A stretch of 64,000 nt of DNA, taken from contig CP154954.1 of assembly GCA_039621445.1 (NCBI GenBank), positions 11,774,716 through 11,838,715 on the forward strand, in the 5' to 3' direction. This DNA comes from Euglena gracilis (taxonomy: Eukaryota). This document shows, one piece after another, positions 2,619-45,635 of the stretch; the stretch's first letter is position 1; every line of letters starts with the position of its first letter. The notes under the pieces were generated by a model, which was not told the DNA's origin, made no database searches, and worked only from the letters and a program-made list of their open reading frames with translations. The position numbers were made by a program, and so were the translations under genes.

Positions 2619-5037
2619 TAAGTTTCTCATTCAGATGGACCATCGCAATGTCCAACTCAACTCAAGTAGAATACACTGCAACCGGTGTTCAACAAATGAT
2701 GCAGCAGTGGGGACGCTTCAGCAGGATGCCATAGGTACCAAGTATCTTGGCACACGCAATTCGCACATTCTGAATGCGTCAAAAAAAAACAAACACGAAA
2801 AATGATTTCTTTTACAGGTGGTAATAATATATACAAAAATCCTCAAACAGTGGTACATCAGCGGGTAAATCCCACCAATGAAAACACTCATAGGATAATT
2901 GGTGAAACCAATCTGCATTCGGATTGACCGGTATGAGGAGAGCTCCGCGACGAGGCGAAGTTGGATTGGGGCCATGGGTTGGAAAGGGGCCATGCCGCGA
3001 AAGCAGCATTGTGGCGAGTCTTCCGATGTCTTGTCCCATCAAGCAGTGACGGTTCACGCCTGACCCACCATCGTTGGTTGACCATTTTCCAATGGGGAAT
3101 GCGAAATGGTCTGGAATCCATGAAACGCAGGTTTTCTTTAATTTGCAGTGATATTCATGTACGTCCTCCCCCCCCCCAAGCCGAATGGACACCAAAATGA
3201 AATCTAGAGAATTAGGCAAACTCTTTGAGCGTGAGTATATGGGCATTTTCATTGCTGTAAAAGCTAACAAACTGGAAGGTCCACACCCCTTGTTCATTGG
3301 GCAAGGGGGTTCATTACAAATGGGGGGGAGGTGTAAGCATCTAAAAACGCAAACAGGGAGTCAATGGACAGACAACCACAAACAAAGCACCCTCTGTTAC
3401 CACAGGCAAAGACATGTTAGGGTCAAAGCGGTCGCAGTGCAACGAATGAGGTGGGAAGGAAGAAAGCGTTCTCTAACTATACTCCAGCAAGCAGGGCGGA
3501 ACGGAAATGAATTTTGAAGACCTTGGTCAGATTGTAGGTGCAAAGGTTCAGGACCAATGCAGCCGAATCGAGTGCCAATGCGAAAAACCAGCGTGATGGG
3601 ACAATTTGAAATAAAAAAAAATCAACACCTGTAATCAAAAACCAAACACATAAATTCACACAAACAAAAACGCGCGCAGGCACGCATACGTATTGCATTA
3701 TGCCTTGGGATACCTGGGGGTCCAAAAACTAGCCACTAGAAAAGCCACTAGCTGGACCCCTCTCTCCTGGGAGGTCCAGGGTCCGGGGCCCCCCAGGTAC
3801 CCCAACTGGAAAACTCACCCCAACTAGCTGCTCGCCCAGGTGGAAATGGGTTTTTGTGTGTTGTTTTGGCTGGTTTTTTTTCCAGGAAAAATACCAAAAA
3901 TTGCAAATTGGGTATGTTTGGCAGGTTTTGGGGGTCAAATAAAAAGTTTCCGGTGCTTTGTGCCAGTCACTTGTGGAAAAAAAAACACCACCTGGCCTGC
4001 AAGCGGAACCCCCTGGGGGGTCCAAGCCAAGTTTGGACTAGCTGCAGTCGACACCCCCCAGAGTTCCTATCCTAGAATTTCTTTGAAACACCATCATTTT
4101 TGTGTCTAGAATTGAATGGGGTTCGGTGGTCCCAGGAACCCTTTCTAGTTGGCTAGCAAAATGGACCCCCAGGCAGGTATAGATGGGAAGCCTTTCAGTT
4201 TTGAGTTAGGCGGGGGGTCCGAACCCCCCCTGGGGGCTACACGTGACGTGGTAGCCCCCCCCCCGGATGTTGGGAGCAAGCACCTCTGGTCACCAATGCC
4301 CTTGGGCCCAGCATCGCCCAGCATCGCCCAGCATCGCCTTTGAAGCCCTTGGAGGTGTACCTCTTGACCCACATTCACTCAGATACCTGCCTCCAGAGCA
4401 TCCACTATAGCACTAGCATACACTTCATCCAATCGGCTAGACACTGGAAAAAATGGACTAGCTAGAACCCCCCTCCCCCCCGGGGGGGGGGGGGGGGGTC
4501 CGGGGGTCCCCCGAACTGGAAAAATGAGGTTTTTAATAGGTTTTTGGCTGATTTTGTTCCAGAAATTGCCAAAAATGGCCAAAAACGGGCATTTTTGGCC
4601 ATTTTGGGGGGTCCCAAAAATTTTTTGGCGCTTCGGTCACTGGAAAAAAAAATTCCACTAGCTAGCCCTGCTAGCAGACCCCCCCCCCGGGGGGTCTGCT
4701 AGAAATCCCACCAGCCAAATTTGGACTAGCTGCAGTCCAGCCCCCCCGGGAGGGGGGGGGGGGTACTGCAATCCCTTAAGCAAATGCCTGACCCCCACCC
4801 ACCCCCTACTTGGCAGGTTTCAAAAGATGCGAAAAGTTTTCCTCTGGTGCTACACCCGACGTGGGTCTTTTTTGGGGGGTCTTATATTTAAATTTTTGCT
4901 CGATCGCAGGGGTGGGGAATTGACATTGGAGGCCTTTGGATAAATTGCAGGAAAAATTGCCGGGAAATTGCAGGGATTGCGGAAATTCGGTTTTGGGATT
5001 TAATATACTTCTGCTGGAGAGGACATTAGAAAATTTT

Positions 5038-5121
5038 GCCGTCAGCGGGGCTACCACCGCTCGACGGTGCCCTATCCTCTGTGGGATGAGGTGGTAACCA
5101 CTTTGTGGTGAACGGGTGCAC
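5038..5121 (+). ncRNA. Candidate degenerate HDV-like ribozyme at the retrotransposon 5' end
   Basis: Hand fold: P1 GCCGTCA (5038-44) with TGA-GGT (5087-92; G1.U wobble, one unpaired G); P2 GTGCCC (5067-72) with GGGTGCAC (5114-21); P3 TCC/GGA; then GG-TAAC; P4 CCAC-TTT-GTGG; J4/2 TGAA where CGAA is expected. Confidence 0.5.
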
Positions 5122-6764
5122 AGCCGGTAGCGTTGTGTCTTTACCCGTCCTGCCTCTTCCTTTTTATCCCCCCCTTCTTGCTCCGGAACGGCCCTTGGTG
5201 CTTGGGAAGTTTCCCAAGATTTTTTGGTGGAGAGTGGAGTGTTTGGCTCTTTCCCATATTGAATCTTCTGGTTGGACAAGTTAAGGAATGATTGCTGCCA
5301 ATCCTTCTGTGAATGTGGGATGTGCCTATTCATGGCAGAATATATGAACTCCCGTAAGCCTAGTTGTGATTGTTACGTATTGATTGCTAATCACAAAAAC
5401 AAAACATAAAATCCATCTCTTTGGACAAATGATATTAATATGGTCGGTTATTGGAAACCGCCCATAGTCGCCCCTGGGCCCCCCTAAAACCTTGGCCCAA
5501 AACACTGTTCTTGTTTGAAACCGTGTTTTGGGCGAAGATTTAAGACTTTCAAAGTCTCGAAATCGGCCCAAACACGGTTTCAATGCAAAAAGCTGAATGT
5601 TGGAGCTCTTATGGTTTTAAGACATACCGATTACTGACGGGATTTAAAACAAAATGGCATGTTATGGACCCCTGCAGGAATGGTGCGCGGCATGTACGCA
5701 ACTGGCCCCAGTGGGGTGACCTCTCAGGACCAACTGGCCATGCTCAAGTCCCTCCAAGGTCATTTGGCACAATTACCTCATTCCACCAATTTCGTCAATC
5801 TGGTGTACTCCATTTTATTTGCGGCTCCGTTCAGACTTCCTCGGATTGTTCGGTTACAATTTTATTTGTTGCAAGTTTTTTAAGGCATCCAATATATCCC
5901 CAAGAAAGGTATTTTGCGGATTTAGGGGGGGGGGGTGGCGGGATACATTAGTTGTGTTTTTTTTCTAGGGGGACCAATAGGAATGTGTAAAGTAGTCGAG
6001 GTGGTGCGGGTTGAGTTTTTAAGAAAATATTTGTCGTTTTTTCACGTTAACTGGCTCTTTGAACCCTTTCCTTTGCCACCTTGCAAAGGTCTGTTGGTAC
6101 ACAGTGGGTGTAGATTAAGGTCAAGGAGAATGGGATGATCATTTATTTGGCCTTTCTACTTCTTTTTGGTTTCTTTTGTTTGTTTGTTTGTGTGTTTTTT
6201 TGGTTGTTTGTTTTCTTTCTCGGAACCCGAGTCAACCTGGTTTCCCACATGGGACCTCGGTGGGTTGCACTGTGTCGTTGATCTTCCCACGCTTCGGGCT
6301 GCTTTACTGGTCCTGGTCAGAGGGATTTCCTCCAAAACCCAATTAAAAGCCTTCCAAAGGCTTGTGGAGGAGCATCTTAGAAAGCAACTTCCCTCTACGT
6401 CTGCAGAAGATCAATTTTCTGTTTCTGTTTGTTTGTAGTTTTCCCCCATCCCCCCCCCGTTCTTGTTGTTTTTATCTCTCTTGTTTTCTTTGGAGGATAA
6501 CAGGAATGTTTGGTCATTCGCAATTTTTTTTGTTGTTTTTTTGGTTCATTTTGATTCTTGTTTCCCCCCTCTCTTAATTTATTATAATAAAGCCTGCTGA
6601 AGACCTGGATTGGTTTCTGCAAGGTGAGCCCACAACCCCTGTCCCATCTGCTCCATCCTCCTCTTCCTCCGGCAGCTTACATTCCCTAGGACTTCCTTCG
6701 TCTTTTTGGCCCCGCCATAATCAGCACCAATAATCAGGTCAAAGTTGATTTCCTCAAAGGAATA

Positions 6765-7345
6765 GTGCAAAGATTGGATTGTGTGGACAACCATGGTTTC
6801 TATTTTGAAAAGACCTGCGATGCCAAGGGATGTTGGAATTGTGGGTCTGTTTTTTCGGCTGATGGTTCGTGTCCGGGTTGTTTGTGTAGTTTGTTTTTCC
6901 ACATTCCGTGCAACACGCAAACAGAATCCTTTATGGGGAACATGGATGGGCGAGCAAATGGGCTAAAGTGCTCCCTAGCAGGCCTCGCATTCTGTCGATG
7001 GGTGGGGTCTACGTGTCCCCTCCTATCATCAATGATGATGCCTTTTTGGTGTTCTTTTTGATTCCCAAGAATATGCCTCCTCCTCCCAATTTTCCCATCC
7101 CTCCCCTGACCAATGAGGAAGTGCGGTGCACATACTCTTCTTTGTGCTCACAATGTGGAAGGCCCAAGGCAGAAAACATCAAAGTTTTGACAAACACAAT
7201 GCCTTTTTTTGTCAAGCGTGCGTTGTGCATCCGTTTGGATAAGGGACACTTCTGCCAACAAAGTCTTTGCTCAACAGTCTCGTTGGGATCTTTATGGTCT
7301 TCCCCTGGAATTTGTGTTACCAGTCACTCCTCGTTTTTTGTTTGA
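6765..7345 (+). pseudogene. Cys-rich N-terminal/ORF1-like remnant of the retrotransposon
   Basis: Frameshifted fragments with paired cysteines (CWNC, CPGC, CSQC) just upstream of the endonuclease. The family was not recognised. Confidence 0.35.
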
Positions 7346-7442
7346 TTGCACCCGGAACAGGCCCCCTGATCTCAGGTTTTGGGTGAAGGAATTGGATGTA
7401 AAACTGCCCCCGCTTGTCTCCAATTCTCGGACTCCTAGTTGT

Positions 7443-8100
7443 TGGAGGATCATGGATTTGAATTGTGGAGGTGGTTCCTCGCTTCCTGAGGTTTGTGATT
7501 TGATGTCTCTTTTGGATCCAGATTTAATATTCCTTCAGGAATTGTGGGAGACCGACCCTCGGGACGAGATTGCTTTTCGCATGTTATATTCCTCAGTGCC
7601 TTCCGTGATTGTGGTCAAGGCTTGTGTATAATGGTGCATCGAAGAGTGTTGGGTCCAAATTCTGCATCACAATCCCCCCCTCTGATTCTCCATGATTGTA
7701 GACCTTGTGGCTAGCTCTGGGGTTTCATGTGGGTTCTTCATCTTTCCTTTTGATAAATGTGCATCTTGACCCTTCTTTCAACATGACACAAAAGGTGGAG
7801 GAAATGCATTTGATGGGTGCCTTGATTCATAAGTCCAAAGCAGGCTGTCTGGTGGCGGGTGATTTCAACGTACACCGGACTGCACATTCATTGATGGAAC
7901 ACTCAACACGTGCTTTTGGTGTCCCGGGTTTGAGGATACCGTATCCTATGGGGCTCAACACAAATCACACACGAGCAGGTAATCGGCTTTCAGACACAGA
8001 GATTGATTATATATATGCGAGTGATTTTTTCCCCCTCAAATGGCATGGCCTGATTCCGGGTCCGTCTTCCATTGATCGTGTGGTTAACGACCTCATTATA
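7443..8100 (+). pseudogene. Apurinic-like endonuclease (APE/EEP) domain, frameshifted
   Basis: Motifs IMDLNCGG, DLIFLQE, LINVH, VAGDFNVH, and NHT...EIDYI, split across ORFs 7209-7631 and 7705-8418. Confidence 0.9.
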
Positions 8101-8740
8101 CCACATGTTTTTTCTAATTCTCCTTCTTGGAAGAGGTTTCAGTTTGTTAATGTCCCCGTTTCAAAAATTCAACAGGTGGCAATACTCCTGTCATTTTTCT
8201 GGTTTTGGTTGCGTGGTCAAGGTGCACATCCCAATTTGTGGCTGCGTGTTTACTGGTTTTTGGCTGATAGAGTTTTTGCTCCTCATGATCAACACTCCTT
8301 GGCTAAGTCTCTCATACAATTGGGGTTGGCATATGCCGACCGCCGCTCGGGTGATCTTGTCATGCAATGGAGGAGCAAAATGTGTGGAGCATCATTTTTT
8401 TTGGCTGTTCAGCCATGAAGTCGCTTTGCAAAGCAGCCCAACCTCCTTAACAACAAAAGTGATCAACACATGTTCCAAAAAGCCGGGGCCGTATCCCAAA
8501 TTGGCTGCTGGCCGGGGGGGGGGGGACGGACTCCTTGGCAAGCCTTCAGAAGAGGAAATCATCAGTCAATTTAAAATGTATCATGCCAATCGGGGTTTAT
8601 CCATGAATGTTGGCCATTTGTACGCAGACCTGGACGTGGTATTGAATCTTCCATAGGATGATCCCTCTTTCTTTCATCTATTTGAGGCCCGTCGGGAAGG
8701 GTTTTGGAACAATGATCTCATCAGTCGATGCCTGCATCTC

Positions 8741-9658
8741 TTGGCTCGGCCAATACGATGCTTTGATTCCATCCGAGGCATCACAGAGTCTCTGCGTTGC
8801 GGAGGTTTCAATGCCACTTCACTGTATTCGCTCCCCATTGCAGTTCTACAGCACCTTACCTTGGCAGGCATGGTGGCTTTGAGCCATTATGTGTTTCTTC
8901 TACGGGGTCTCCCAAAGGCCCTGAGTAATGAAGTCATTCAATTGGCCATTCCCAAGGGGGGTCCACAACGTTTGTTCATTTCTTATCGGCCCATCAAACT
9001 CGGATCCGCCATAAAACGTGCGGAGGCTGGGTCAGTTCATTTAGAGGCAAGTTTTCGCGCTGAAGTGGATGGTTCTTTCACATCCAACCTCTTATCTTAT
9101 CGGAAGGAAGTGACTCCTTTTATGCTTGCCTTCGCATTGAGGTCCACGATTTTGCTGTGCTTGAAGGAAACATCCAAGGCCCACATTTTGGATGGTGATG
9201 AATCGGGAGCATTTGATACTCCTGGTTGGGACGATTTGGCATTGTTGGATCATATGTGGAAAGGGCAATGTGCTTTTGGTGGTTGGGCTCATCGATTTTG
9301 CGCCACCCAGAGCATTTGTCTTTTTGCACATGAGGGTTTGACACAACCGCTGAAGATAGGGGATGGTCTTTCACAAGGTTGCAAATTTGCTCCGACCGCT
9401 TACAACCTGATTGGCGTTGGGAGGAACATAACTTTCATTAAGTCATGTCAAAGTATGTTGTGTCACCACGGCTTACCCCTTTGTGAATTTATTTATAGTG
9501 ACGATCGCCGATGGGTCAGCCCTTGTGTGAATGCTTTGGCAATTGCAGCACGAGTTGCAAATGCTGTCTCACAGGAAGCGTGTGCAATCAATAACTTGCA
9601 AAAATTGAAGTATGTTGCTTTGAAACGTTGTGCTGATGGTTCCATTTGTACTTTTTGA
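8741..9658 (+). pseudogene. Non-LTR reverse transcriptase domain
   Basis: Motifs IPKG, YRPIKL, DGDESGAFD, GLSQGCKFAP, YSDD and INNLQK, in canonical order. Flanking frames are broken by stops and frameshifts. Confidence 0.93.
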
Positions 9659-10256
9659 ACTGAAGTTGCCATCAATGATCAGTGGGTGCAGTTTGTGTGC
9701 GAAGTTCCTTTGATGGTGGGGTTATCAATGCAACCTGGTGCCATAAATCTTTCCCTGCTCCCTGGAATCAGAATTCACATACAAAAATTGCGGCAATTCA
9801 TAGAAAAGTTGAATCCAAATTTCCAGTTGACTTTGCGATGTACAATAGCGTATGCGATATCAATATTGGATTATTCCTCCCGCGGCTGTTGTGTTCCATC
9901 AGCAATTTTGACAAAAGTACAACCTTTTCTTAACCAAGTGATACGTTCATGCTTTTCCTTCCCCCCAGACACCCCAATTTCACTGATGACTCTCCCCCTG
10001 GCGCATTTTGGTACGGGTTTTCCAAATGTGACTCATCGAGCCCGACTCCAATTTATTTTGGGTTATTACGAAGAACAATTTTTACAAAAACAATCGATGG
10101 TAGGAACAATTTGTGTAGATTTGCGATGCGTCAATCTAGGGATGATTCTGGCGTGCAGAGTGACTATGCTTTGATTCGTTCTTTATTTACCCAATTCCGG
10201 CCTCATTTTTTCCCCCATGCCTACCCAGCTTTTGCCTTTCACTTCAGCACGCTTCT

Positions 10257-10680
10257 GTGCTATATATCACAACGAATGCTTCGCCAGTCTCTCCGCAGGA
10301 TGATGGGTTTGATCTTCAGCGAGCGGGGTTGGGTGTTGTCATCACGGACGGCATTGTTTATCAAGAGATCTCGTGGGGGTTATGTTCTGTGGCAGCTTGT
10401 TCCACTGATCTGGAATGGATTGGGAAGCTTTTGGCAGTTTGGTTGGTGCGCTTCTTCCGGGGCAAGATATTACTGTTGTGTGACAACTCATCCGTACAAC
10501 TTTGCAATTTCACACAATGGGTGAAAGTCTCTCCTTGGGTGGACCGTTGGGCAAAGATGCTTTTTGGTTTGCCGGTTTGGGATCGTCACATAGGGTTGGC
10601 TTCAGGCGGAACACAATTCATTTTCTCAAGGATTGGCATGTTCGTGGCAGAAACGGGCATTACTTGGCTGGTTGGGGCTC
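10257..10680 (+). pseudogene. RNase H domain, degenerate
   Basis: YITTNAS (N in place of the catalytic D), AGLGVV, STDLEW and LLCDNSSV. After a frameshift the reading is WLQAEH. Confidence 0.75.
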
Positions 10681-11968
10681 AACTCATGTGGAATCGACTG
10701 GTTTCCCTTTGGCTGATATGCTCTCTTCTTTGGAGGACCCCCGCTTTCTTTTGCTTTGGATGGAAGGCTTGATTTTTTTCTTGAAGAGATTTGTGACCAA
10801 GCTCTACAAACTGTGCATTTTCTGTGATTTTGTCGCTTACGCTACCCTGAATGCTGGTGCTTTCTGTCGTCTGACATGGAAAAAGTTGGTTTTATCAAGC
10901 GACGTTCCATCAGTCTTGCACAAAATGGCAGCCTACCTGCGTGTTGTGCCCTTTTTGTCTCGGAGTGCTCATTACAATGTGGAATGTCGGTTTTGTCATG
11001 CCGAGGTTGGTTTTTTGCCCAGGCACATTGTTGGATGTGTGGGATTGTATGAAGTATTGATCAAGGCTTTCTCGGAGGTTCTGCAAACAGTATCAACAAG
11101 ATCATTGGGTTCGATACCGGAAAAATCGGATTTGGCTGCGGTTCTGCAATCTCAAAATGAGATGTGGGTCATTGCACTTCTTCCTGAAGAAAACGTCGTC
11201 TGTGTGCGTCATTTTTTTGAGCAAAAAGGATGGTCGGGCCTCACCGGTGTACCACATCGATTGAGTATGCTTTTCCCCACAAGTGTTCGTTTGGAATTGT
11301 GTGCCATTGTACTCCGGACATTATCAGTTGCCCCGCGAGGATTCTTCACAACATCAGACATCAACATTCCACTGCACACCAATTTTTGGGGGTTGGTGGG
11401 TTGGTCAAGCAACGGCGCACGTGGATGCCAACCGTCGTTCCTAATCCAATGGAGGCTTGCATGGATGTTGCACAATTTGGTCGGTGGTCGTTTGTGTTCT
11501 TCTCGTTCTCTGTCGGTATACCTTCCCCCCCCCCCCCGATGTTTGCATCCTCCTGACCTATTTGATGTAAGGGTCTTTGCTTGTGATGTTAACCATTGTT
11601 ATGTCATCTCAAACCATCCTGGGAGAGGCCCTGCATGCATGCTGTGTGATTGCAACATAGCAGCTCCCTCGTATTGGCACCTCCATCGCTCTTATTCCGA
11701 AGGTGCTACACTTCACGTGTTCTTGTGTATGTCTGTAGCTCATGTATCCTCTTCCCTCCATACACATCTACCATCGCTATGTCAAGCACCAAGGGCATTC
11801 CACTTGCTCATAAACCTCTGCCATGGTGTGCTATTCACACTGCAATGTACACTCTGCAATGTGATTTTATCAATATTATCGTTTTGGTTGGTGCTGCCCC
11901 CTTTTCACCCTGGTCCGACGGGAGTGGTTGTGCTGTTGGGGTTGCCCCTTTCCGCTCGCGTCTGGTAG
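10681..11968 (+). pseudogene. C-terminal part of the retrotransposon ORF with a Cys/His motif
   Basis: Part of the 488-aa frame 10502-11968. Contains CRFC-X9-H-X3-C near 10985-11040, reminiscent of the C-terminal zinc knuckle of LINE ORF2. Its stop codon lies in the first 56-bp repeat. Confidence 0.55.
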
Positions 11969-12612
11969 GGCTACGCGTGTGCTCGTGTTGTTCGTGCTGC
12001 CCCCTTCCCGCTCTCGCATGGTAGGGCTGAGCGTGTGCTTGTGTTGTTCGTGCTGCCCCCTTCCCGCTCTCGTCCGGTAGGGCTGAGCGTGTGCTTGTGT
12101 TGTTCGTGCTGCCCCCTTCCCGCTCTCGTCCGGTAGGGCTGAGCGTGTGCTTGTGTTGTTCGTGCTACCCCCTTCCCGCTCTCGTCCGGTAGGGCTGAGC
12201 GTGTGCTCGTGTTGTTAGTGCTGCCCGCTTCCCGCTCTTGTCCGGTAGGGCTGAGCGTGTGCTTGTGTTGTTCGTGCTACCCCCTTCCCGCTCTCGTCCG
12301 GTAGGGCTGAGCGTGTGCTCGTGTTGGTCGTGCTTCCCCCTTCCCGCTCTCGTCCGGTAGGGCTGAGCGTGTGCTCGTGTTGTTCGTGCTTCCCCCTTCC
12401 CGCTCTCGTCCGGTAGGGCTGAGCGTGTGCTCGTGTTGTTCGTGCTGCCCGCTTCCCGCTCTCGTCCGGTAGGGCTGAGCGTGTGCTTGTGTTGTTCGTG
12501 CTGCCCGCTTCCCGCTCTCGTCCGGTAGGGCTAAGCGTGTGCTCGTGTTGGTCGTGTTGCCCCCTTCCCGCTCTCGTCCGGTAGGGCTGAGCGTGTGCTT
12601 GTGTTGTTAGTG
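11942..12612 (+). repeat. 56-bp minisatellite (12 units) in the retrotransposon 3' UTR
   Basis: Unit GTAGGGCTGAGCGTGTGCTYGTGTTGTTCGTGCTGCCCCCTTCCCGCTCTCGTCCG. GTAGGGCT recurs every 56 bp from 11965 to 12581, with no spacers. Confidence 0.97.
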
Positions 12613-14277
12613 CTTCTGGTTGCTTGTGTGGTTAGTTCAACGTCCTTCCCCTGATGTCTTGTTATATGCCAATGATACTCCCCTGAATTGTTATATATTT
12701 TATTTTATTTTATTTTATTCATTCTCCTCCCTTCCCGCAATAAATGCTAATTAAGCCCCTTTCGCGTTGCCTGTACCCGCCCAGGCTCACCAAACCAAAC
12801 CAAACCAAATTAGAAAATTTTACAATTTTGGTCATTTTGCAACATACATGGAAATTTTGAGCCGGAAATCACATCTTTCCACCAAGAAGGTCCAAAAACA
12901 CCACTTTTGGTATTTTGGTTGGTGGCAAGCTGGTCCTTGGCTGGGAATTCATTTGGTGAAAAATAACAAAAAAAAAACGGCAAAAATTGACGAAAAGTTT
13001 GGTCTCAGGTAAAATCTGATCCAGGATAGGAGTTTTTCTTGTCGCAATTATTTCCCAGCAGATACTGGGGGGGGGACCTGAAAAGACCCAAAAATCGCCA
13101 ATTTTGTGAATTTTAGAAATTTCGGCAAATTTGCAACAAAATAACAAAAAATCACCTCGGTTCCCTTGTAGAACGTTCAAGGAATGGCCGGAACTCATTG
13201 TGGAAGGGAAAAAATTGCGAAATTGCAGGAAAATTGCGGAAAATTACGGAAATTGTGGAATAAATTGCGGAAATCAATCCCCTCCTGTCGATAGGCCCAG
13301 CATGGGGTTTTATTTTGGGGTCTCATTTTTGGAGGGTCTTATTTGGGGGGGGGGGTTAATACCCTGGGGTTCACAGAGAAGTGGAGGGAAGGGGGCCCAG
13401 ATCGGCGAAAACTTCGCCACGTGTGAACTTCCCCTCTTCGCATGGGCGCATGGCCTGGGCCACGATTGAAGGGAAAGCCGGGGGGGCAACCTTAAGGGGC
13501 CAAATTTGTATGTTTTTAGTGGGCCAGATGCAAAATAAGCCAAAAACCTTAAAAAAGGGAGGAAAGCTTTAGGGGGGGGGCAAGGTTGTATGTGAGGAGG
13601 GTGGGGGGGGTAGCAAGCGCCTGGGATTTTTTGTTCATTTTCAGAGTAATTTCATGGCTTCGGCCGTTTTTGACCGTTTGAGGGTAAGTTTTTGAACAGT
13701 TTGTCATTTCTAGCCACTTTTAGCAACCGTTGGCTATTTTGTGGCAAAGCTTGCACAATTAAAAGCTGCTTTTAAAAATTTACGTCAATTTTAGACATTT
13801 TGAATAAATGTGTGACCCTGTTTCCTCGTCATATTGAATTTTTCAGCGTTGTATTGTGATATTTTCCATTTTTTTTTCGTTCATTTTACCATTTTTTATT
13901 ATTATTAGCAAAAAAAAGCAAAAAATGTTTACATATTTATGGAGCCAACGTATCCAGAAAGATTGCATCGGACCAGAAGAGGGGGAGGTCGTTGCACAGA
14001 ACCCTGCCCATCCTCTTGAATCCATTTCAACAATTCTTCATTTTCAGAAGGTCTTCAACTTACATGATTTGCGAGTTAACAAATCGACCACAGATACGCA
14101 CACGTCGCCGAAGCTACATTATGTAAACCAGGAAAGCTGCTTTTTTCGGCAAGAACGTACGTACAGAGAGTGGTCCAGTGCTCCATTGGTGTGCTTCTGA
14201 CAATGCGGGCTTGGGTGGGCGTGCATCCAGAAAACTGTCAGCAGCAGCACAACAGGAACTAACGTGTTGTTCCTGTA

Positions 14278-14905
14278 CCTCCCGCCCCCTTGTCCAACGA
14301 CCAAACTAATGTTCGTCTCCCACTGGGGGGGGGGGGCGGTCGCTAAAATGGCCAATGTTCGTCTCCGACCAGGGGGGGTGGTCGTTAGACAAGGGGGGTG
14401 GAGCCCAAGTTGGAGGAAAATTTACCATAGATAGGGGTATATGGCCATTTTTGGGCTGTTTTTGGCCATTTATGCTATTTCTTGACTACGGTTGGCCACT
14501 TTTGGCCATTTTTGGACATTTTTGGGGCACTTTTGGGAATTTTTAGGCAATTTTTGACCGTTTTTCGCCATGTTTGGTCGCTTTTGGCCACTTTTGGCAA
14601 CTGTTGGCCACACTTTGGCCCACTTTGCCCATTTTTGGCCACTTTAGGCTGTTTTTGGCTACGTTTGGCCATTTTTGCCTTATTTTTGCTATTTTTGGCA
14701 ACTTTTTGGGCACTTTTGGCCATCCTTTGGCCATTTTAGGCCATTTTGGGCTATTTTTGACTGTTTTTAGCCAACTTTTAGCCATTTTGGCCGAACCAAC
14801 CATCGTATACAAAAAGATCGTCTCTGACCGGGGGGGGGGGGGGGGGTCGTTAGACAAGCCCGGTCGTTAGACAAGCCCGGTCGTTGGACAAGGGGGGGGG
14901 GGGGG
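14278..14905. mobile_element. TA-flanked MITE (Tc1/mariner-type TSD), copy A
   Basis: TA-CCTCCCGCCCCCTTGTCCAACGACC ... GGTCGTTGGACAAGGGGGG(G)n-TA, giving ~25-bp TIRs. The interior is low-complexity TTTTGGCCA. Confidence 0.75.
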
Positions 14906-17383
14906 TAAGAGGACAAGACACCCGCCTGCGCTAGGGCGGCAGCGGCGAGCGCGTTCGACTGTGTGAGGGGGCTTCTAAGGCAGCCAGCCCAGCGTTGGAA
15001 ACAAGACCACCGGCCAACTAACCAACTAACCAATGGTTTAAGGAGCCCCCCCCCTCAAAAAAAACGGTGGTGTGACGGTATATCAGTGTAGCATAAAAGA
15101 ACGAGGAGATTAAAAGCTAAGCAGGACCCCACAAAATAGGAATTGGCTCCTACAAATCGGAGGGATAAAAAAAGGCACAAGTTGCTCCTTCAATTATTCT
15201 GCCCCAGTTTTAGAAAAAAATATTCTGACAATGCATTGTTAATGTATAATATTTTTTCGTTCATTTGGGAGAATCCCGGATGTGTGTGTATTTTCCTGTT
15301 GAGAAATACCACAAGATACATTTCCATGATGGTGGCAAGGGTAAAACTCTGATATCAAACCAGCCAATCACCGGCAACGGATTTCTTTTTTTGCTTTTGA
15401 GGGGCAATACAGACCAAAAAACACGCAAAAATCGGCAGAAAAAATGCTGGCTAGCACAATATTTAGAAAAAATTGATTTTTTTTGCATCCTTGGACAGTA
15501 TTTTTTTGCAGTTTCTATTTTTTTTTCAACTACCCAGTTCGAACCCAGCAGCCTCTTTCGAGCCAGCCGAAATTTTCCATCCGCACCCGGGCGTCCTCAG
15601 GCGACGCCTTGTTTCCAAATTTCTGTTCTTGTGAGCTTCAGCCTCTTTGGCGATGCTTGGGTCTTCCTGCCTGCGATACTCCAACATGGCAGCTGTCGGA
15701 ATGTGTCCAACTCCCAGGCAGAGGGGGGGATGGAACCACCCGGAATGCATACCTCATCCCAGGGGTCGAATATGTGTCATATTTGTGAAATGATAGGATG
15801 AACCCCCCCCCAAAATAACACCCCCTGGTGTATTATTTTTTCGCCCGGAGTCCCGGCCCGAGGAGGGGCGGTTTTATTTGGGGGGGGGGGTATTATTTTC
15901 GAAATTTTTCGAAGTCCCATTGGAGCCAAAAAAAGCGCCAAAACCCCCCCTTTGGGGTCATTTTTTGTACTTTCTATTGCAATTTATCATTTTTTGGAGG
16001 TCAGATGATCCAGAAAAATCGAATTTTTTTTCGTAATTTGTTGTCAGAGATTGTGATTTTTACCTACATTTTCAGGTTTAAATCCGGGCCTTCGGCCCAG
16101 AACCGGGGGGGGGGGGGGTATTATTTCAGTCGCCAAAGTCAGACCCCGAGGAGGGGGGTATTATTTGGGGGGGGGGGGGTTACACTCATGTTCAATTTCT
16201 GAGTAGCTTTATTTTTTTTCAATCCGATCATTTTTTGGACATTTTAAACTCTTCTTCTTTCAAGCCTTTCTGTGATGATTAATTAGAAATCTAGGCGGAT
16301 TTTTTCCCCTCCGCCCAGGTTCTGGGAAAGAAATGTCTCATCCAGCCTTCTTACTGCAAAATAAATCAAACTCTTCGATGGGGGGGCCCGAGGCTGGAAG
16401 AAGGCAGCTGGCTGGTGGACCCTCCCAGCCAGGGATGAGGTGCCCTCTAGCTTAAGTGATGCCTTGCCTGGAATGCGAGAGACACCTCCTTAAACAAAGA
16501 GGGAAATGGACAGATATGGAGACATGGGTCATGAGCGATGAGCGGATGGGGCGTTTACACCTGGCATGGGCACGGCAATAGCAACCAGGGCACGGGTTCT
16601 TAGTAGAGACTGTATGACAGCTGCAAGCCTCGCATCGTTGCTGAGAGGTGGTCATTAGGACGATAATCAGAACATGGGTTACCATTTGTTGTTATCCGTA
16701 ATTATCCACAAATATCCGTAATTGCAACAGTGCCTGTGCTGACTGGGGACATCCAACCAGAAATTGCTGCAACCAATGAGAACAGAAAGATTGATTGCAA
16801 TATCGACTCAGAAATGCCCACAATAAAAAATTGTCACTGAAAAATGAGTAAGCCGTCCAAAAGCAGCCAGAAACAGCTGGAAAGCAGCGAAGCGGCCTGA
16901 AAAAAAAAAGGCACAAAAGACCAAATCAAATCAAAAAACATATCCAAATATCCACAAAACGGCTGAAAGCGGCCAGAAACAGCCAGAAATGGCCAAAATG
17001 TGGGCTGAAAATGGGAAGCAGCTGAAACAGTCAGAAGTCGTCAAAAGTGACCAAATGCAACCAAAAGCAGGCAGAAATGGCCAAAAGTGTCAAAAGAAGC
17101 AGTCAAAAAAGTAGCCAAAGCATCCAGATGAAGCAGCAAAAAGTGGCCCATAATTGCCAAAAATGGCCTTAACAATCAAAATTTTGGTGTATCCGTAGTT
17201 ATCCGCAGTTATTCATATTGAGGGTTTTTGGGCTTATCGTAGCTATCCGTAATCATCCGTAGTTATCTGTTTCGGTATGAGCCCATCCCTGACACACACC
17301 ACTGCAAAATCTTTTGTAGAAAAAAAACAACAGAGGAGGCAAAAAAATTCTTTGGTCAAATAATGGTCTGTGCTTCAAATCAT

Positions 17384-25023: not shown

Positions 25024-28000
25024 TAACTGAAAATAATTTTAAAACCTCCACCCAGCGCTTTACAGGGCGGTCCTCAGGCAAAAAAAAAACCTGTCCCCAT
25101 ACACTTCAAGCAAAAAAAAAGGATAAGGGGATTTTTGCTGGGGAAAATTTTTTGAAATTTTTTTTTGAAAAATGAATCCAAAATACATGCTTTTTTGATG
25201 GAAATCACATTTTTTCCCAAAAAAACCAGTATTTTAGGGCTGAAAATTGTTAGTTTTTAGAAGGCGGTCAAAAAAAAATGCAGGTCAAAAAAAAAGAGAC
25301 CAAATTTTGGAACATTCAAACTTTACTGACATTTTTTCTCTTAGAATTTTTTTGGATTTTCAGTGGCATTTTGTTTGCTTCCAAAAACTCTCAAAATCAA
25401 AATTTTGAGAAATGTTGAAATTTTAGAAGGTGTGAAAAAAAAATGGGGTTTGGGGGGTTTTGGGCAACATTTTGGGCAGTATTTTCACCAATTTCGGGAA
25501 AACGGGGATTTGGGCTGAAAAAAATTCTGAATTTTTTTAGAAGAATGAACCCAAAATACCGGGGGGGGGGGGGCATTGGGGCTGGATAAAATTAGAACCG
25601 ACAAAATTGGAAGCCAAAAAAATTGGTGTCAAACCTGAAAACGGCCCGGAAAATTTTGGCAGAATTTTTTATGTGAAAACGTCCAGTTATGGCAAGATTT
25701 CTTCTATGGCAACCAAAAAATTGGGGGGAAATGGTAAAAAATTGGCTGGATTTTCAAAAAAGGGCCAGAAAAAATTGGCAGGATTTTTGTACGCCAATTT
25801 TTTCTCGATCAATTTTTTCGGCCTCCAGTTCCCCCCACGGTACATGATTTTTGATGGAAAACTTCATTTCTTCACAAAAAAAACATCTCAAAGGTTTCAG
25901 GGTTAAATTTAGTAGTTTTTAGGAGGGGGTGGAAAATAACGAAGGTCAAAAAAAGTGGACCAAATTTTGGCACAGTCGAAATTTTACTGACATTTTTTTC
26001 ACTTGGAAATTTTTTGGATTTTCAATGGCTTTTTTGCTTCAAAAAAATCTCAAAACTAAATTTTTGAGAAAATGTTGAATTTTTGGAAGGTGGGAAAAAA
26101 TGGGGTTTTGAGGGGTTTTTGGGGGGACCTCCCATATGGGTCCCAAAATGGGTCAAAAAAAAAACCCCGCGCGCCGAGGTGCCGGAAAATTTTTCGGGTC
26201 CAATTTTTCGGGTTTCTGTGTATTTGGGGGGGGGGCGGTCCTTAAGGGGCGGTCCTTAGCTAAAAATAAAAAAAAAATCCCGTCCCTTATGGACCGCCAT
26301 GGCGCTTTACGGTATACTCTCGGAAGCGCAAGCAAAAAACGGTTACTTTCCAACTCCTTTCTATTTCTCAAATTCAGCACCCCTTCCACCTCTCCAGCTG
26401 GACAACGATTCCAATATTGGCAGTTGTGTGGTTTTCATGATAAGACGGAGCCGGTGGCAATCGATGGAGCCGCATGACCACCGCGGAGGCACGGGTGGCG
26501 CGGGCACCGCCGGGGTGAGCGGAGGGCTCCTGCCGAATGGACCGTGGGTCCCAACACTGCTGTCCGAGCTGGCGGGGCTGGAGGGAGTGGGATGTGCCAG
26601 GCGAGGCCAGGGTCGTACTGGAATGGCAGCCTGCCTCTGGCATTCTGACATGCACACGGAACAATTTTTATCGCTGTTCCGCGTTCTTATTGTTCCGACA
26701 GCAAGCACTCAACCTATCTCAGATCTTGCGAATTTAGGCTGGAAGAATGCCAATGGGGGGAACCCTAAACCTAACCAATCCCCTGCCCCATGTGGGAATA
26801 AACATTTGGTGCAAAAAAACAAACACGAAAAATGATTCCTTTTACAGGTGGTAATAATATATACAAAAATCCTCAAACAGTGGTACATCAGCGGGTAAAT
26901 CCCACCAATGAAAACACTCATAGGATAATTGGTGAAACCAATCTGCATTCGGATTGACCGGTATGAGGAGAGCTCCGCGATGAGGCGAAGTTGGATTGGG
27001 GCCATGGGTTAGAAAGGGGCCATGCCGCGAAAGCAGCATTGTGGCGAGTCTTCCGATGTCTTGTCCCATCAAGCAGTGACGGTTCACGCCTGACCATCGT
27101 TGGTTGACCACTTTCCAATGGGGAATGTGAAATGGTCTGGAATCCATGAAACGCAGGTTTTTTTTAATTTGCAGTGATATTCATGTACGTCCTCCCCCCC
27201 CAAGCCGAATGGACACCAAAATGAAATCTAGAGAATTAGGCAAACTCTTTGAGCGTGAGTATATGGGCATTTTCATTGCTGCAAAAGCTAACAAACTGGA
27301 GGTCCACACCCCTTGTTCATTGGGCAAGGGGGTTCATTACAAATGGGGGGGAGGGGTAAGCACCTAAAAACGCAAACAGGGAGTCAATGGACAGACAACC
27401 ACAAACAAAGCACCCTCTGTTACCACAGGCAAAGACATGTTAGGGTCAAAGCGGTCGCAGTGCAACGAATGAGGTGGGAAGGAAGAAAGCGTTCTCTAAC
27501 TATACTCCAGCAAGCAGGGCGGAACGGAAATGAATTTTGAAGACCTTGGTCAGATTGTAGGTGCAAAGGTTCAGGACCAATGCAGCCGAATCGAGTGCCA
27601 ATGCGAAAAACCAGCGTGATGGGACAATTTGAAATAAAATAAAAAATCAACACCCGTAATCAAAAACCAAACACATAAATTCACACAAACAAAAACGCGC
27701 GCAGGCACGCATACCTATTGCATTATGCCTTGGGATACCTGGGGATCCGAAAACTAGCCACTAGAAAAGCCACTAGCTGGACCCCTCTCTCCTGGGAGGT
27801 CCAGGGTCCGGGGCCCCCCAGGTACCCCAACTGGAAAACTCACCCCAACTAGCTGCTCGCCCAGGTGGAAATGGGTTTTTGTGTGTTGTTTTGGCTGTTT
27901 TTTTTTCCAGGAAAAATACCAAAAATTGCAAATTGGGTATGTTTGGCAGGTTTTGGGGGTCAAATAAAAAGTTTCCGGTGCTTTGTGCCAGTCACTTGTG

Positions 28001-29224
28001 GAAAAAAAAACACCACCTGGCCTGCAAGCGGAACCCCTGGGGGGTCCAAACCAAGTTTGGACTAGCTGCAGTCGACACCCCCCAGAGTTGTACTGTGAGT
28101 CCTTTTGAAGAACCCTGGTCTCGACGTTTTCTCGACACCCAAAAACCCCCCATTCAACGACCATAAATGTTTGCCTCTGACCAGGGAGGCGGTCGCTAAA
28201 ACTTTTTTTTATCTCTGACCAGGAGGGGGGTCGACCAGATTATGAAATGGGCAGGCAGGGGGGGGGGTTGGTCTGGACACCCCCGGGGGGGGGGGGGGTT
28301 GGACTCCCTCCTGGGGGAAAGAAGCGCCGGAAATTTTTGGGACTTGAAAAAGGCCCTAAAAATGCGTTTTCGCGTATTTTTTTTGAAAAATAGGCCAAAC
28401 CGTACACGAGAAAATAGAACAAAAAAGCCATTTTTGGTGTTTGGGGTGCCGGACGCCACGGTCCCGGTCCCGTTTCCAGTCCCCCATCAGTCTGAAGAGG
28501 GGAGGGAGGTGGTCTGGAACCCCCTGTAAACCGCCCCCAATAACACCCCCCCCCCGGTGTGTTATTTGGGCACCCGAACTGGGACCCCGGGGGGGGGGGG
28601 GGGGGTTATTTGGGGGGTGCTATTTTTACATGGAAAACCAAAGAAAAACAGGGGGGTGTTATTTGGGCGCTCGAAATCGGCCCCCAAGGGGGGGGGGTGT
28701 TATTTGGGGGGGGTGCTATTTGGGGGGGTGTTATTTGGAGGGGTTTACAAAACCAACACTCACTTAAACATCCCCCCCGAAAATAAGACTTGGGTGTTGT
28801 TTTCGGGTCTGTTGTTGGAAACCTCCAGGTGGGTCTTATATTTGGAGTTTGGAGATGTGGTAAATGTCAAATTGCGACAAATTTACAAATTTATTTACAA
28901 AAAAGTAACAAAAATTTGCACATGGCGCAAAGTACTGAAAGAAAATTTTAGTGTTTTTGGGTACCTGAAAAATAATGTTTATTTGGGCCCCGATAGGCCT
29001 TTTGCACTTCAAAGATCCTAGAATTTCTTTGAAACACCATCATTTTTGTGTCTAGAATTGAATGGGGTTCGGTGGTCCCAGGAACCCTTTCTAGTTGGCT
29101 AGCAAAATGGACCCCCAGGCAGGTATAGATGGGAAGCCTTTCAGTTTTGAGTTAGGCGGGGGGTCCAAACCCCCCCTGGGGGCTACACGTGACGTGGTAG
29201 CCCCCCCTCCCCGGATGTTGGGAG

Positions 29225-30158
29225 CAAGCACCTCTGGTCACCAATGCCCTTGGGCCCAGCATCGCCCAGCATCGCCCAGCATCGCCTTTGAAGCCCTTGG
29301 AGGTGTACCTCTTGACCCACATTCACTCAGATACCTGCCTCCAGAGCATCCACTATAGCACTAGCATACACTTCATCCACTTTTATCCACATTTACCCAC
29401 TTGTACAACTTTTGGCCATTCTTGGCCAATTTGGCCACTTTTGGCCACAGGGCCACTTTTGACCATTTCACATTGTCTAGTGCCTGCATCTTGTCCAGTA
29501 TCTGCACCTTTGTCAAGCATCTGCATCTTGTCCACCATCTTCATCTTTTCCAGTGCCTGCATCTTGTCCAGTATCCGCATCTTGTCCACCATCTGCATCT
29601 TGTCCAGTATCCTCATCCAGCATGTTGTCCAGTGTCCGCATCTTGTCCAATATCCACATCTTGTCCAATATTTGCATCTTGCCGAATGTCGCATCCATTG
29701 GCTCCCAACCTATCCAAAATGACCACAAACGCCCCAAAAACAATCACAAAAGCCCAAAAGGCCCCAAAAAAGCAACCAAATGACCTAAAATAGCTTGAAA
29801 TAAACAAAATAGGCGAAAAAAAATGCCCCCAATGTCCACAAAAGATCTTGAAAAATAACTGGCATAATATGACCAAAAATGCCATTAACGTGCTCATTAT
29901 ACCAAATTAGCTCAATGTTTGCCCAAATCAATGCAAAAATAGCCGGCAAAACAGCAAAAATTATTTCAAAATGGCCAACATAGGAGTAGTATTGGAGGTT
30001 TGTGGGAAAGTTATCCTAAAAGTGGTTTAATTCTTCAAAATATACAAAAAATGCCAGCATCGCCCAGCATCGCCCTGCATCGCCCAGCATCGGACCCCCA
30101 CCTCTGGTCCGAAAATCCAGCATCGCCCAGCATCGCCCAGCATCATCAGAGGTGCTTG
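29225..30158. mobile_element. 934-bp non-autonomous hAT-type element
   Basis: 12-bp TIR CAAGCACCTCTG/CAGAGGTGCTTG and perfect 8-bp TSD GTTGGGAG (29217-24, 30159-66). Subterminal GCATCGCCCA arrays and an internal 18-bp tandem repeat (~29480-29690). Confidence 0.9.
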
Positions 30159-30184
30159 GTTGGGAGGGGTGTCCGGACCCCCGC

Positions 30185-30590
30185 CAGGCATTTGCTTAAG
30201 GCCCCCGGGGGGGGGGGGACTGGCTAGCCAATCGGCTAGACACTGGAAAAAATGGACTAGCTAGAACCCCCCTCCCCCCCCCAGGGGGGGGGGGGTCCGG
30301 GGGTCCCCCGAACTGGAAAAATGAGGTTTTTAATAGGTTTTTGGCTGATTTTGTTCCAGAAATTGCCAAAAATGGCCAAAAACGGGCATTTTTGGCCATT
30401 TTTGGGGGTCCCAAAAATTTTTCGGCGCTTCGGTCACTGGAAAAAAAAATTCCACTAGCTAGCCCTGCTAGCAGACCCCCCCGGGGGGGGGGGGGTCTGC
30501 TAGAAATCCCACCAGCCAAATTTGGACTAGCTGCAGTCCAGCCCCCCCGGGGGGGGGGGGGGGGAGTGCAATCTCTTAAGCAAATGCCCG
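30185..30590. mobile_element. 406-bp hAT-type MITE
   Basis: TIR CAGGCATTTGCTTAAG / CTTAAGCAAATGCC(C)G; the copy A right end near 4775-4790 reads ...GCCTG. 8-bp flanks ACCCCCGC and ACCCCCAC. Confidence 0.8.
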
Positions 30591-32297
30591 ACCCCCACCC
30601 ACCCCCTACTTGGCAGGTTTCAAAAGATGCGAAAAGTTTTCCTCTGGTTCTACACCCGACGTGGGTCTTATTTGGGGGGTCTTATATTTAAATTTTTGCT
30701 CGATCGCAGGGGTGGGGAATTGACATTGGAGGCCTTTGGATAAATTGCAGGAAAAATTGCCGGGAAATTGCAGGAATTGCGGAAATTCGGTTTTGGGATT
30801 TAATGTACTTCTGCTGGAGAGGACATTAGAAAATTTTACAAATTTGGTCATTTTGCAACATACATGGAAATTTTGAGCCGGAAATCACATCTTTCCACCA
30901 AGAAGGTCCAAAAACACCACTTTTGGTATTTTGGTTGGTGGCAAGCTGGTCCTTGGCTGGGAATTCATTTGGTGAAAAATAACAAAAAAACGGCAAAAAC
31001 TGACGAAAAGTTTGGTCTCAGGTAAAATCTGATCCAGGATGCGGAGTTTTTCTTGTCGCAATTATTTCCCAGCAGATATTGGGGGGGGGGGACCTGAAAA
31101 GACCCAGAAATCGCCAATTTTGTAAATTTTAGAAATTTCGGCAAATTTGCAACAAAATAACAAAAAATCACCTCGGTTCCCTTGTAGAACGTTCAAGGAA
31201 TGGCCGGAACTCATTGTGGAAGGGGAAAAAATTGCGAAATTGCGGGAAAATTGCGGAAAATTACGGAAATTGTGGAATAAAAAAAAAATGCGGAAATCAA
31301 TCCCCTCCTGTCGATAGGCCCAGCATGGGGTTTTATTTTGGGGTCTCATTTTTGGAGGGTCTTATTTGGGGGGGGGGTTAATACCCTGGGGTTCACAGCC
31401 AAGTGGAGGGAAGGGGAGCCCAGATCGGCGAAAACTTCGCCACGTGTGAACTTCCCCTCTTCGCATGGGCGCATGGCCTGGGCCACGATTGAAGGGAAAG
31501 CCGGGGGGGGGCAACCTTAAGGGGCCAAATTTGTATGTTTTTAGTGGGCCAGATGCAAAATAAGCCAAAAACCTTAAAAAAGGGAGGAAAGCTTTAGGGG
31601 GGGGCAAGGTTGTATGTGAGGAGGGGGGGGGGTAGCAAGCGCCTGGGATTTTTTGTTCATTTTCAGAGTAATTTCATGGCTTCGGCCGTTTTTGACCGTT
31701 TGAGGGTAATTTTTTGAACAGTTTGTCATTTCTAGCCACTTTTAGCAACCGTTGGCTATTTTGTGGCAAAGCTTGCACAATTAAAAGCTGCTTTTAAAAA
31801 TCTACGTCAATTTTGGACATTTTGAATAAATGTGTGACCCTGTTTCCTCGTCATATTGAATTTTTCAGCGTTGTATTGTGATATTTTCCATTTTTTTCGT
31901 TCATTTTACCATTTTTTATTATTATTAGCAAAAAAAAGCAAAAAAATGTTTACATATTTATGGAGCCAACGTATCCAGAAAGATTGCATCGGACCAGAAG
32001 AGGGGGAGGTCGTTGCACAGAACCCTGCCCATCCTCTTGAATCCATTTCAACAATTCTTCATTTTCAGAAGGTCTTCACTTACATGATTTGCGAGTTAAC
32101 AAATCGACCACAGATACGCACACGTCGCCGAAGCTACATTATGTAAACCAGGAAAGCTGCTTTTTTCGGCAAGAACGTACGTACAGAGAGTGGTCCAGTG
32201 CTCCATTGGTGTGCTTCTGACAATGCGGGCTTGGGTGGGCGTGCATCCAGAAAACTGTCAGCAGCAGCACAACAGGAACTAACGTGTTGTTCCTGTA

Positions 32298-32925
32298 CCT
32301 CCCGCCCCCTTGTCCAACGACCAAACTAATGTTCGTCTCCGACTGGGGGGGGAGGGGGGGCGGTCGCTAAAATGGCCAATGTTCGTCTCCGACCAGGGGG
32401 GGTGGTCGTTAGACAAGGGGGGTGGAGCCCAAGTTGGAGGAAAATTTACCATAGATAGGGGGGTATATGGCCATTTTTGGGCTGTTTTTGGCCATTTATG
32501 CTATTTCTTGACTACGGTTGGCCACTTTTGGCCATTTTTGGACATTTTTGGGGCACTTTTGGGAATTTTTAGGCAATTTTTGACCGTTTTTCGCCATGTT
32601 TGGTCGCTTTTGGCCACTTTTGGCAACTGTTGGCCACACTTTGGCCCACTTTGCCCATTTTTGGCCACTTTAGGCTGTTTTTGGCTACGTTTGGCCATTT
32701 TTGCCTTATTTTTGCTATTTTTGGCAACTTTTTGGGCACTTTTGGCCATCCTTTGGCCATTTTAGGCCATTTTGGGCTATTTTTGACTGTTTTTAGCCAA
32801 CTTTTAGCCATTTTGGCCGAACCAACCATCGTATACAAAAAGGTCGTCTCTGACCGGGGGGGGGGGGGTCGTTAGACAAGCCCGGTCGTTAGACAAGCCC
32901 GGTCGTTGGACAAGGGGGGGGGAGG
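32298..32925. mobile_element. TA-flanked MITE, copy B
   Basis: Duplicate of 14278-14905. The right TIR GGTCGTTGGACAAGGGGGGGGGAGG-TA matches the left TIR. Confidence 0.75.
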
Positions 32926-40928: not shown

Positions 40929-41100
40929 AGGGGTCAAAAGTGGCCCCCAAAATGGCACTTTCTTGTGGTTTTTGGTTTTTTAGCTCCAAATTTGGCTGGA
41001 AAATGCCAACCCAGTTGGGTTTTGGCTTTTCCAGCCAAATTTGGAGCTAAAGAACCAAAAACCACAAGGAAGTGCCATTTTGGGGCCACTGTTGACCTCT
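40929..41100. repeat. Foldback palindrome, copy B
   Basis: Duplicate of 23960-24130. Confidence 0.88.

Positions 41101-44799: not shown

Positions 44800-44845
<46 letters not shown>
44800..44845 (+). repeat. (GA)n microsatellite
   Basis: Perfect GA run. Others at 45491-45584, 46805-46856 and 49433-49454. Confidence 0.98.
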
Positions 44846-45588
<743 letters not shown>

Positions 45589-45635
45589 TTAAGTTGTTGA
45601 ACATACACCCATAATGAAAATAAAGTGGAATACAG

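Follow-up and report, generated by a model that had tools for sequence, protein, structure and literature searches.

The Dualen (or RandI) group of long interspersed nuclear elements (LINEs) reportedly goes back to Kojima and Fujiwara in 2005, and is said to have its hosts among green algae and cryptophytes. According to the passages cited here and below from each paper, Dualen elements are the only LINEs in which a restriction-like endonuclease (RLE) and an apurinic/apyrimidinic endonuclease (APE) occur together (PMC9977147; PMC4640811 and PMC3636483 agree), and they form the basis for the argument that APE replaced RLE early in LINE evolution (PMC4640811). A cryptophyte Dualen is described as containing APE, reverse transcriptase (RT), ribonuclease H (RNase H), a CCHC zinc finger, and RLE (PMC5029228), and an active Chlamydomonas Dualen family generates very long target-site duplications (TSDs), with a median of 900 bp (PMC9977147). 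Members of the I group (Ingi, I, Nimb, Loa, R1, Tad1, and others) typically have an RNase H after RT (PMC4640811). The element considered here is a LINE copy of 7771 bp at positions 5038-12808 (12808-5038+1) of the window, that is, of the whole 64-kb stretch of Euglena gracilis DNA analyzed (contig CP154954.1, positions 11,774,716 to 11,838,715). It is recognized as an insertion by its TSD and by an empty copy of the target site.

The cited part of the E. gracilis assembly paper gives LINEs in bulk, at 1.49% of the genome, and 32.7% as unclassified (PMC11252322). A literature search found no paper tying Euglena to Dualen, ingi, or L1Tc, and none that treats its non-long-terminal-repeat retrotransposons at family level.

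The family to which the insert belongs would encode one long protein: a zinc-finger region, APE, RT, RNase H, a CCHC knuckle, and a domain with the fold of the R2 RLE. The order APE-RT-RNase H-CCHC-RLE fold is read as Dualen-type. The element is therefore probably (at a rough probability of 0.6) a Dualen-type LINE of a divergent lineage and not a relative of ingi/L1Tc; its likeness to Dualen is one of domain architecture.

Domain order and the C-terminal fold

Homology to the family runs along the forward strand (the strand of all features given below, unless stated otherwise) from the first zinc-finger motif at 6831 to about 11713; the last open frame ends with TAG at 11966. The N-terminal zinc-finger motif CxxC...CxxC (6831-6881, frame 3) aligns with CWSCG/CWECG of the relatives P0001 and P0003, and a second Cys motif, CxxCGRP (7145-7165, frame 2), fits the family consensus CTxCxR. 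Both motifs are conserved in the N-termini of P0001, P0003, P0016, and P0023. The APE domain (7401-8346) is split over three frames; it is identified through Pfam PF03372 in relatives and a profile match to the L1 endonuclease, and contains the motifs LNCGG (7458), LQE (7533), GDFN (7858), and IDY (8002). Inspection against relatives indicates that the conserved C-terminal His of APE is missing from the window copy.

The linker and RT follow at 8417-10066, with the motifs YRPI (8984), DGDESGAFD (9197), GLSQGCKFAP (9371), and YSDD (9494). RNase H (10179-10659), split by a frameshift near 10590, is recognized by the motifs TDG (10344), EW (10413), CDN (10479), and H (within 10606-10620), and by the fold of P0007, the nearest relative of the window copy in the RT tree. 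The window copy retains the catalytic D, E, D, and H; the last Asp is replaced by Asn. Next come a CCHC zinc knuckle, CRFC-x9-H-x4-C (10985-11038), with two Cys invariant or nearly so in alignment A3; a predicted PD-(D/E)XK restriction-endonuclease-like fold domain (11033-11368), seen in a model of the window's own translation; and a C-terminal Cys/His-rich motif (11582-11653) common to P0007, P0055, P0001, and P0154. Candidate motifs of this fold domain are SD (11120-11143), PEE (11174-11191), and WSG (11228-11242).

As in Dualen, APE precedes RT, RNase H and CCHC lie between RT and the second nuclease domain, and an RLE fold follows CCHC in the predicted structure of the window C-terminus. 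An earlier note on this DNA had given the order as APE-RT(YSDD)-RNase H-Cys/His. Those motifs do lie in that order on one strand, but the C-terminus is more than a Cys/His motif: it combines CCHC with the RLE-fold domain. The same note reported no DxExNPGP 2A motif before the APE, and it was right: translation of the insert in its three forward frames gives neither NPGP nor NPG, and NPGP is absent from 153 family proteins.

The window copy itself is decayed. It has at least eight changes of reading frame (the first between 6881 and 7145, the others near 7247, 7590, 7705, 8380, 10100, 10590, and 10670) and two in-frame stops, TAG at 8654 and TGA at 9656. The copy is coding-dead and incapable of autonomous movement, though every catalytic motif is still recognizable in it. 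Taken by itself, the window copy gets weak Pfam scores (APE at E 0.052 and 1.8e-4, RVT_1 at E 0.028, none reaching the cut-off); for this reason its domains were assigned from relatives and predicted folds.

Relatives were found with a 333-residue RT fragment, which identifies P0001 (1723 residues, 42% identity) and P0002 (1079 residues). A phmmer search with P0002 against 1.84 billion representatives yields 305 matches at E ≤0.001. Among the relatives listed, none exceeds 58% identity to the window copy. By tblastn, the full-length relatives P0001, P0003, and P0002 are colinear with window positions 7401-11386. PF03372 scores above its cut-off of 24.5 in seven of eleven relatives scanned (29.2-38.3 bits), and Pfam misses the RT in most of them, with a sub-threshold RVT_1 match (27.1 bits) in one of the eleven. 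Profile A1 matches the L1 endonuclease at E 1.7e-8 to 8.6e-7 and the R2 RT at E 6e-7. The family also includes one "complete" MMETSP transcript and one JGI protein called "ribonuclease HI". By these searches the family is small among sampled proteins, poorly sampled, and very divergent; the earlier note had called its RT motifs divergent.

A tree of the RT within the family (22 rows, after exclusion of rows with fewer than 180 aligned residues; midpoint-rooted, no outgroup) contains three groups. The window copy belongs to a 13-row clade (support 98/99), beside P0007 (support 94/89). The relatives are single open reading frames (ORFs) that begin either at the zinc-finger region or at APE. In the full-length proteins P0003 and P0035, an additional N-terminal extension of roughly 400-600 residues, including a Pro-rich stretch, precedes the zinc-finger region; P0154 begins directly at APE. 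This difference suggests that the N-terminus is modular in the family.

Predicted structures confirm both RT and RNase H. The P0007 model (predicted local distance difference test score, pLDDT, 80.7; predicted template-modeling score 0.82) matches R2 proteins at Z 15.5-17.9 by VIA-align, with 530-574 residues aligned, and at E 1.5e-12 by Foldseek. The superposition spans from RT to the very end of the R2 endonuclease, with an RNase HI fold inserted between: P0007 residues 398-580 match Escherichia coli RNase HI at Z 14.1 (root-mean-square deviation, rmsd, 2.8; 138 aligned). The match to L1 ORF2p is at Z 13.2 (Foldseek E 3.6e-7). The RT is of LINE type by its motifs (8984-9505), by the R2 RT profile, and by the P0007 model; Pfam RVT_1 stays below cut-off.

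The C-terminal 307 residues of the window copy were modeled separately, with a family alignment. The model has a mean pLDDT of 64.2, rising to 80-93 in most 10-residue blocks between residues 21 and 180. In a search of about 48,000 chains, independent of Foldseek, the best match is R2Bm (Z 8.9, rmsd 4.0, 161 aligned; model residues 12-184 on 873-1107), and the second is R2Tg (Z 7.8). A second comparison, with six R2 structures from three species (Bombyx, Taeniopygia, and Platysternon), gives Z 8.2-9.1 (model 12-189 on R2Bm 872-1107). The region after CCHC superposes on the R2 linker, zinc-knuckle, and restriction-like endonuclease. Next in rank are PA-N of influenza/orthomyxovirus (Z 5.2-6.3) and the endonuclease-like domain of Prp8 (Z 4.9-5.1); restriction-endonuclease-like fold proteins score Z 3.7-3.9.

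Alignment inspection places conserved residues at positions of interest in this model. Every member of the window's clade (9/9) has an Asp at the start of modeled strand 2, strand 3 terminates with an acidic residue in 15 of the 16 correctly aligned rows, and the Gly of WSG, present in 16/16 rows, recalls RG.W of R2. (The R2 endonuclease motifs compared here, RG.W, RH, and K..KY, follow PMC4838377.) SET and C48 peptidase domains were not found in the window element. A C48 peptidase candidate (Ulp1/SENP, Z 3.2-3.4) falls on a part of the model with pLDDT 35-58, and was rejected as noise.

Several observations weigh against the Dualen-type assignment. The identity of the domain as an RLE is a matter of predicted structures only: phmmer of the C-terminal 160 residues against PDB sequences finds no match at E up to 10, Foldseek is weak for the C-terminal model (E 0.0098-0.086), and by the structure-comparison method's own note, best Z values of 7-8 often occur when a model has no true match. 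The RH and K..KY motifs of R2 are not evident in the family alignment, a conserved Arg, not Lys, occupies the second helix, and the strand-2 Asp occurs in 0/9 members of the other two clades. Since RH and K..KY are not apparent and the Asp is confined to one clade, the domain may be inactive or serve another role. A weak alignment (Z 4.3) is also seen with the C-terminal domain of L1 ORF2p; C-termini derived from an RLE might therefore be a general property of APE LINEs, rather than one peculiar to Dualen. Finally, the 13-bp TSD is ordinary, far from the Chlamydomonas median, and tail, target, and 5' end are known from one copy with flanks.

A further step can be taken only tentatively, with the odds leaning against it: the family might be a dual-endonuclease LINE lineage in the course of losing its RLE, in which the window's clade keeps the Asp and acidic positions and the sister clades keep the scaffold only.

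The 5' region and other readings of the element

Upstream of the coding region lies a stretch of about 1.5 kb (5038-6505) in which coding homology was not detected. Its right limit is tentative because ATG at 6506 is assumed as the start codon. The sequence DxDWFLxG is matched at the N-terminus of P0003 (single comparison, E 0.003), which makes that start codon, and the roughly 1.5 kb of non-coding 5' sequence that it would leave, a lead only. Protein homology was not found in 5038-6700, the 5' ORFs have no Pfam match, and a promoter was not identified in 5038-6505. As for an upstream ORF1, the absence of Pfam matches in the 5' ORFs stands beside relatives with single ORFs and a heavily decayed 5' part of the window copy. 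A claim that the element has an unusual 2.4 kb upstream of APE needs to be divided: about 0.6-0.9 kb of this is coding, and contains the conserved zinc-finger N-terminus; in the rest, coding homology was not detected.

Searches for an HDV-like (hepatitis delta virus-like) ribozyme were negative. There is no ribozyme among 13 Rfam matches (E up to 10) in 4900-7000. Insert positions 1-31 form a plain hairpin, and the overall fold has z -1.77; inspection by hand revealed a helix of 6 bp that has G-U pairing at position 1, and no complete double pseudoknot.

The 5' region does contain a palindromic hairpin repeat (5484-5583, not assigned to a strand), with arms of 21-26 nt and RNA fold z -4.9. The palindrome may be a foldback or a repeat resembling a miniature inverted-repeat transposable element. 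Other copies of this and neighboring sequence were sought in Logan contigs from four runs, placed on 4700-13100 at ≥85% identity; the depths given add up all contigs and are not readable as copy numbers. In all four runs, the two bins at 5262-5823, which hold the hairpin, are about 10-70x deeper than neighboring bins and the LINE body. Many alternative contig joints fall at 5496-5577, with many alternative loop sequences in the hairpin.

The deep bins and the strong palindrome together raise the possibility that an abundant repeat, nested or shared, makes up part of the 5' region. Carried further, this becomes a composite element: the LINE would start well inside the insert, 5262-5823 in particular would be an unrelated repeat, nested or co-mobilized, and the long 5' region would not be a feature of the family. 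The absence of protein homology as far as 6700 fits such an arrangement. However, the segment is bounded by neither TSDs nor terminal repeats, and contig depth is unsuited to ranking parts of a stretch. Moreover, bins 4981-5261 and 5824-6666 are as deep as the LINE body, which argues that the outer parts of the 5' region belong to the LINE family. A composite origin is thus possible but somewhat improbable.

Less probable again, and on balance unlikely, is that the element is an I-group or ingi-like LINE whose post-CCHC domain is a structural or nucleic-acid-binding domain, not a nuclease, that merely resembles the R2 endonuclease. A TSD of about 12-13 bp would suit such an element, as would RNase H after RT, which is typical of the I group (PMC4640811). 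The absence of evident RH and K..KY motifs and of a sequence-level match to R2 endonuclease points the same way, and a Z near 9 is borderline by the method's own note. Yet R2 chains top all folds over linker, knuckle, and nuclease together, in two independent models; bona fide PD-(D/E)XK nucleases take the next ranks; and the L1 C-terminal domain scores far lower, at Z 4.3. In addition, Asp and acidic residues are conserved at the would-be catalytic sites in the window's clade, and the insert shows neither poly(A) nor a 2A motif, nor an HDV-like ribozyme among Rfam matches up to E 10.

Insertion, dispersal, and surroundings

The window contains a tandem segmental duplication: unit A spans 2783-26788 and unit B 26813-43522, with a unit of about 16.7 kb and 95-98% identity. 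Additional indels distinguish the two units, for example at 4065/4069 versus 28089/29015. The insert lies in unit A between two identical copies of ATTAGAAAATTTT, at 5025-5037 and 12809-12821 (13/13), and the same 13 bases are present once, as an empty target site, at 30825-30837 of the paralogous unit. Self-comparison of the window aligns the left flank (4429-5037) with 30228-30837 (96.2% identity across 613 columns), and the right flank (12809-16065) with 30825-34090 (97.2% across 3293 columns). Both alignments overlap on the paralogue by exactly the 13 bases of ATTAGAAAATTTT, which indicates insertion into unit A after the duplication.

Contigs tell the same story. The contig of the left flank stops at 5034 or 5037 in all four runs, and a contig begins at 12821 in two of the four; this is the pattern expected from a branch between filled and empty sites at the exact ends. 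The flank contigs are much deeper than single copy in low-coverage runs. Because of this depth, the 16.7-kb unit may itself be a multi-copy repeat.

The insert lacks long terminal repeats and carries its tail at the junction; its internal repeats within the window are a minisatellite and one hairpin only. The minisatellite (56 bp x 12.0, 93% matches) occupies 11945-12614. The array is missing from at least one variant contig, seen in two of the four runs, in which 11701 is joined to 12620. Downstream are (TTTTA)4 at 12698-12717 and AATAAA at 12739. The tail, (ACCAA)4 at 12789-12808, abuts the right TSD; a search for this pattern gives two overlapping matches, both at the tail and none elsewhere in the window, with 0.08 expected by chance.

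With a TSD and an empty site both present, as in a target-primed LINE insertion, the insert is confirmed as real, precisely bounded, and structurally full-length. The earlier note's account of the insertion (7771 bp, a perfect 13-bp TSD, an empty site at 30825-30837) agrees in full with these repeats and flank alignments, as does its description of a 3' minisatellite array and of (ACCAA)4 in place of poly(A). It had also called the LINE complete, which holds for both ends but not for the reading frame, with its frame changes and stops. The converse history, in which nothing was inserted and the paralogous unit instead lost 7771 bp through recombination between the two 13-bp repeats, can draw on the fact that both states are known solely as paralogues inside one window, but it is so improbable that it may be set aside: the segment is a LINE complete in its anatomy, the tail falling precisely at the junction, and belongs to a dispersed family with thousands of contig pieces at ≥85% identity.

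Insertion probably proceeded by target-primed reverse transcription into one unit of the pre-existing 16.7-kb tandem duplication, and two nicks 13 bp apart gave rise to the target-site duplication, a staggered-cut signature seen in the sequence. The first nick probably cut the bottom strand at the left border of the 13 duplicated bp (5'-...CTAAT/GTCC-3'). Synthesis of complementary DNA may then have been primed at the (ACCAA)n terminus of the RNA, homology amounting to one base at most, and the second nick made on the top strand after TTTT.

Numbers of contig pieces placed in the four runs are 20,066, 18,162, 22,832, and 4,441. In run X1, 3955 pieces are at ≥99% identity, 7179 at 95-99%, 7039 at 90-95%, and 1893 below 90%. 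These counts and this spread of identity indicate a high-copy family of mixed age. Indels that would restore the frame of the window copy are among those listed (+2 at 7247, +4 at 7580, -2 at 7706, -1 at 8377, and +2 at 10585), and they cover at least five of its eight frame changes. The window's own indel state is also well represented at several of these sites, with about half of the summed depth at 7580 (X2, X3) and at 7706 (X1-X3), so the lesions are common to a subfamily and not private to this copy. Since a sizeable share of the other copies carry some of the same frame-breaking indels, the defective subfamily has probably been amplified in trans, copied by intact relatives.

The 64-kb window contains no second copy of the LINE. 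A scan of metagenomes with profile A1 turned up 189 pattern matches, of which none was confirmed. One contig considered as a further copy (L001) matched a 23-nt 3'-end pattern and had 24 nt in common only; this match was rejected as chance.

Just upstream of the insert, 4700-4980 (paralogue about 30500-30780) is a very abundant repeat, with about 50-100x the summed depth of the LINE body in all four runs and loose ends at 4708-4790. A 10-bp TTGGCCATTT minisatellite of about 30 copies is present in both duplication units, at 14442-14792 and 32468-32818. A GC-richer block (55%) at 44800-46857 contains three microsatellites made up purely of (AG)n/(GA)n units, 23-48 repeats each, and long ORFs without a Pfam match. 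At 55468-55543, a 76-nt A-rich tract (76% A) is a possible retroposon tail; nearby ORFs have no Pfam domain. Outside the insert, 67 ORFs of at least 130 residues have no Pfam match, and neither a tRNA nor an Rfam family was found in the 64-kb window.

Comparison with described LINEs

For practical purposes, the exact ends and the empty site make the insert a clean reference copy for building a repeat library, and the family would help to explain part of the large unclassified repeat fraction of the host genome. What it contributes to LINE history depends on the C-terminal domain. If that domain is only a structural relic, this is an ordinary new LINE family. If a dual-endonuclease lineage is indeed losing its RLE, the clades would illustrate, as a natural series, how APE could have replaced RLE when APE-type LINEs arose, as has been proposed. 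If the host is a euglenid, Dualen-type architecture would extend to Discoba, which argues for great age.

The trypanosomatid elements ingi and L1Tc share APE-RT-RNase H in a single ORF and a C-terminal zinc-binding motif with the present element. Their TSDs are about 12 bp. The earlier note drew this comparison, which does not hold up: the tail is (ACCAA)4 and not poly(A); neither the element nor the 153 family proteins contain the 2A motif (NPGP); an HDV-like ribozyme was not found (Rfam up to E 10, 4900-7000); and the element, at about 7.8 kb, has an N-terminal zinc-finger region and a C-terminus of CCHC plus the R2-endonuclease fold.

Human LINE-1 ORF2p resembles the family in its N-terminal APE and in the fold of its RT. 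In contrast, L1 has no RNase H, ends in a poly(A) tail, and encodes a separate ORF1, and its C-terminal domain matches at Z 4.3 only. With R2, the family shares a single superposable block made up of RT, linker, CCHC, and endonuclease (Z 15.5-17.9 for P0007, 8.2-9.1 for the window C-terminus). Sequence identity to the family in these structural alignments is 8-14%, however, and R2 has no APE or RNase H, is site-specific for ribosomal DNA, and carries N-terminal zinc-finger/Myb domains.

The element differs from Dualen/RandI in its N-terminal zinc-finger region and in its nuclease-like domain, where RH and K..KY are not clear and the Asp is kept in one of three clades; SET and C48 were not found. 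The likeness lies in the plan of the protein, with one long ORF and the same order of APE, RT, RNase H, CCHC, and RLE position; both groups are also obscure and rarely annotated. A divergent, high-copy family with the Dualen domain order, missed by the Pfam RT model, would offer a second, independent view of the transition between RLE and APE.

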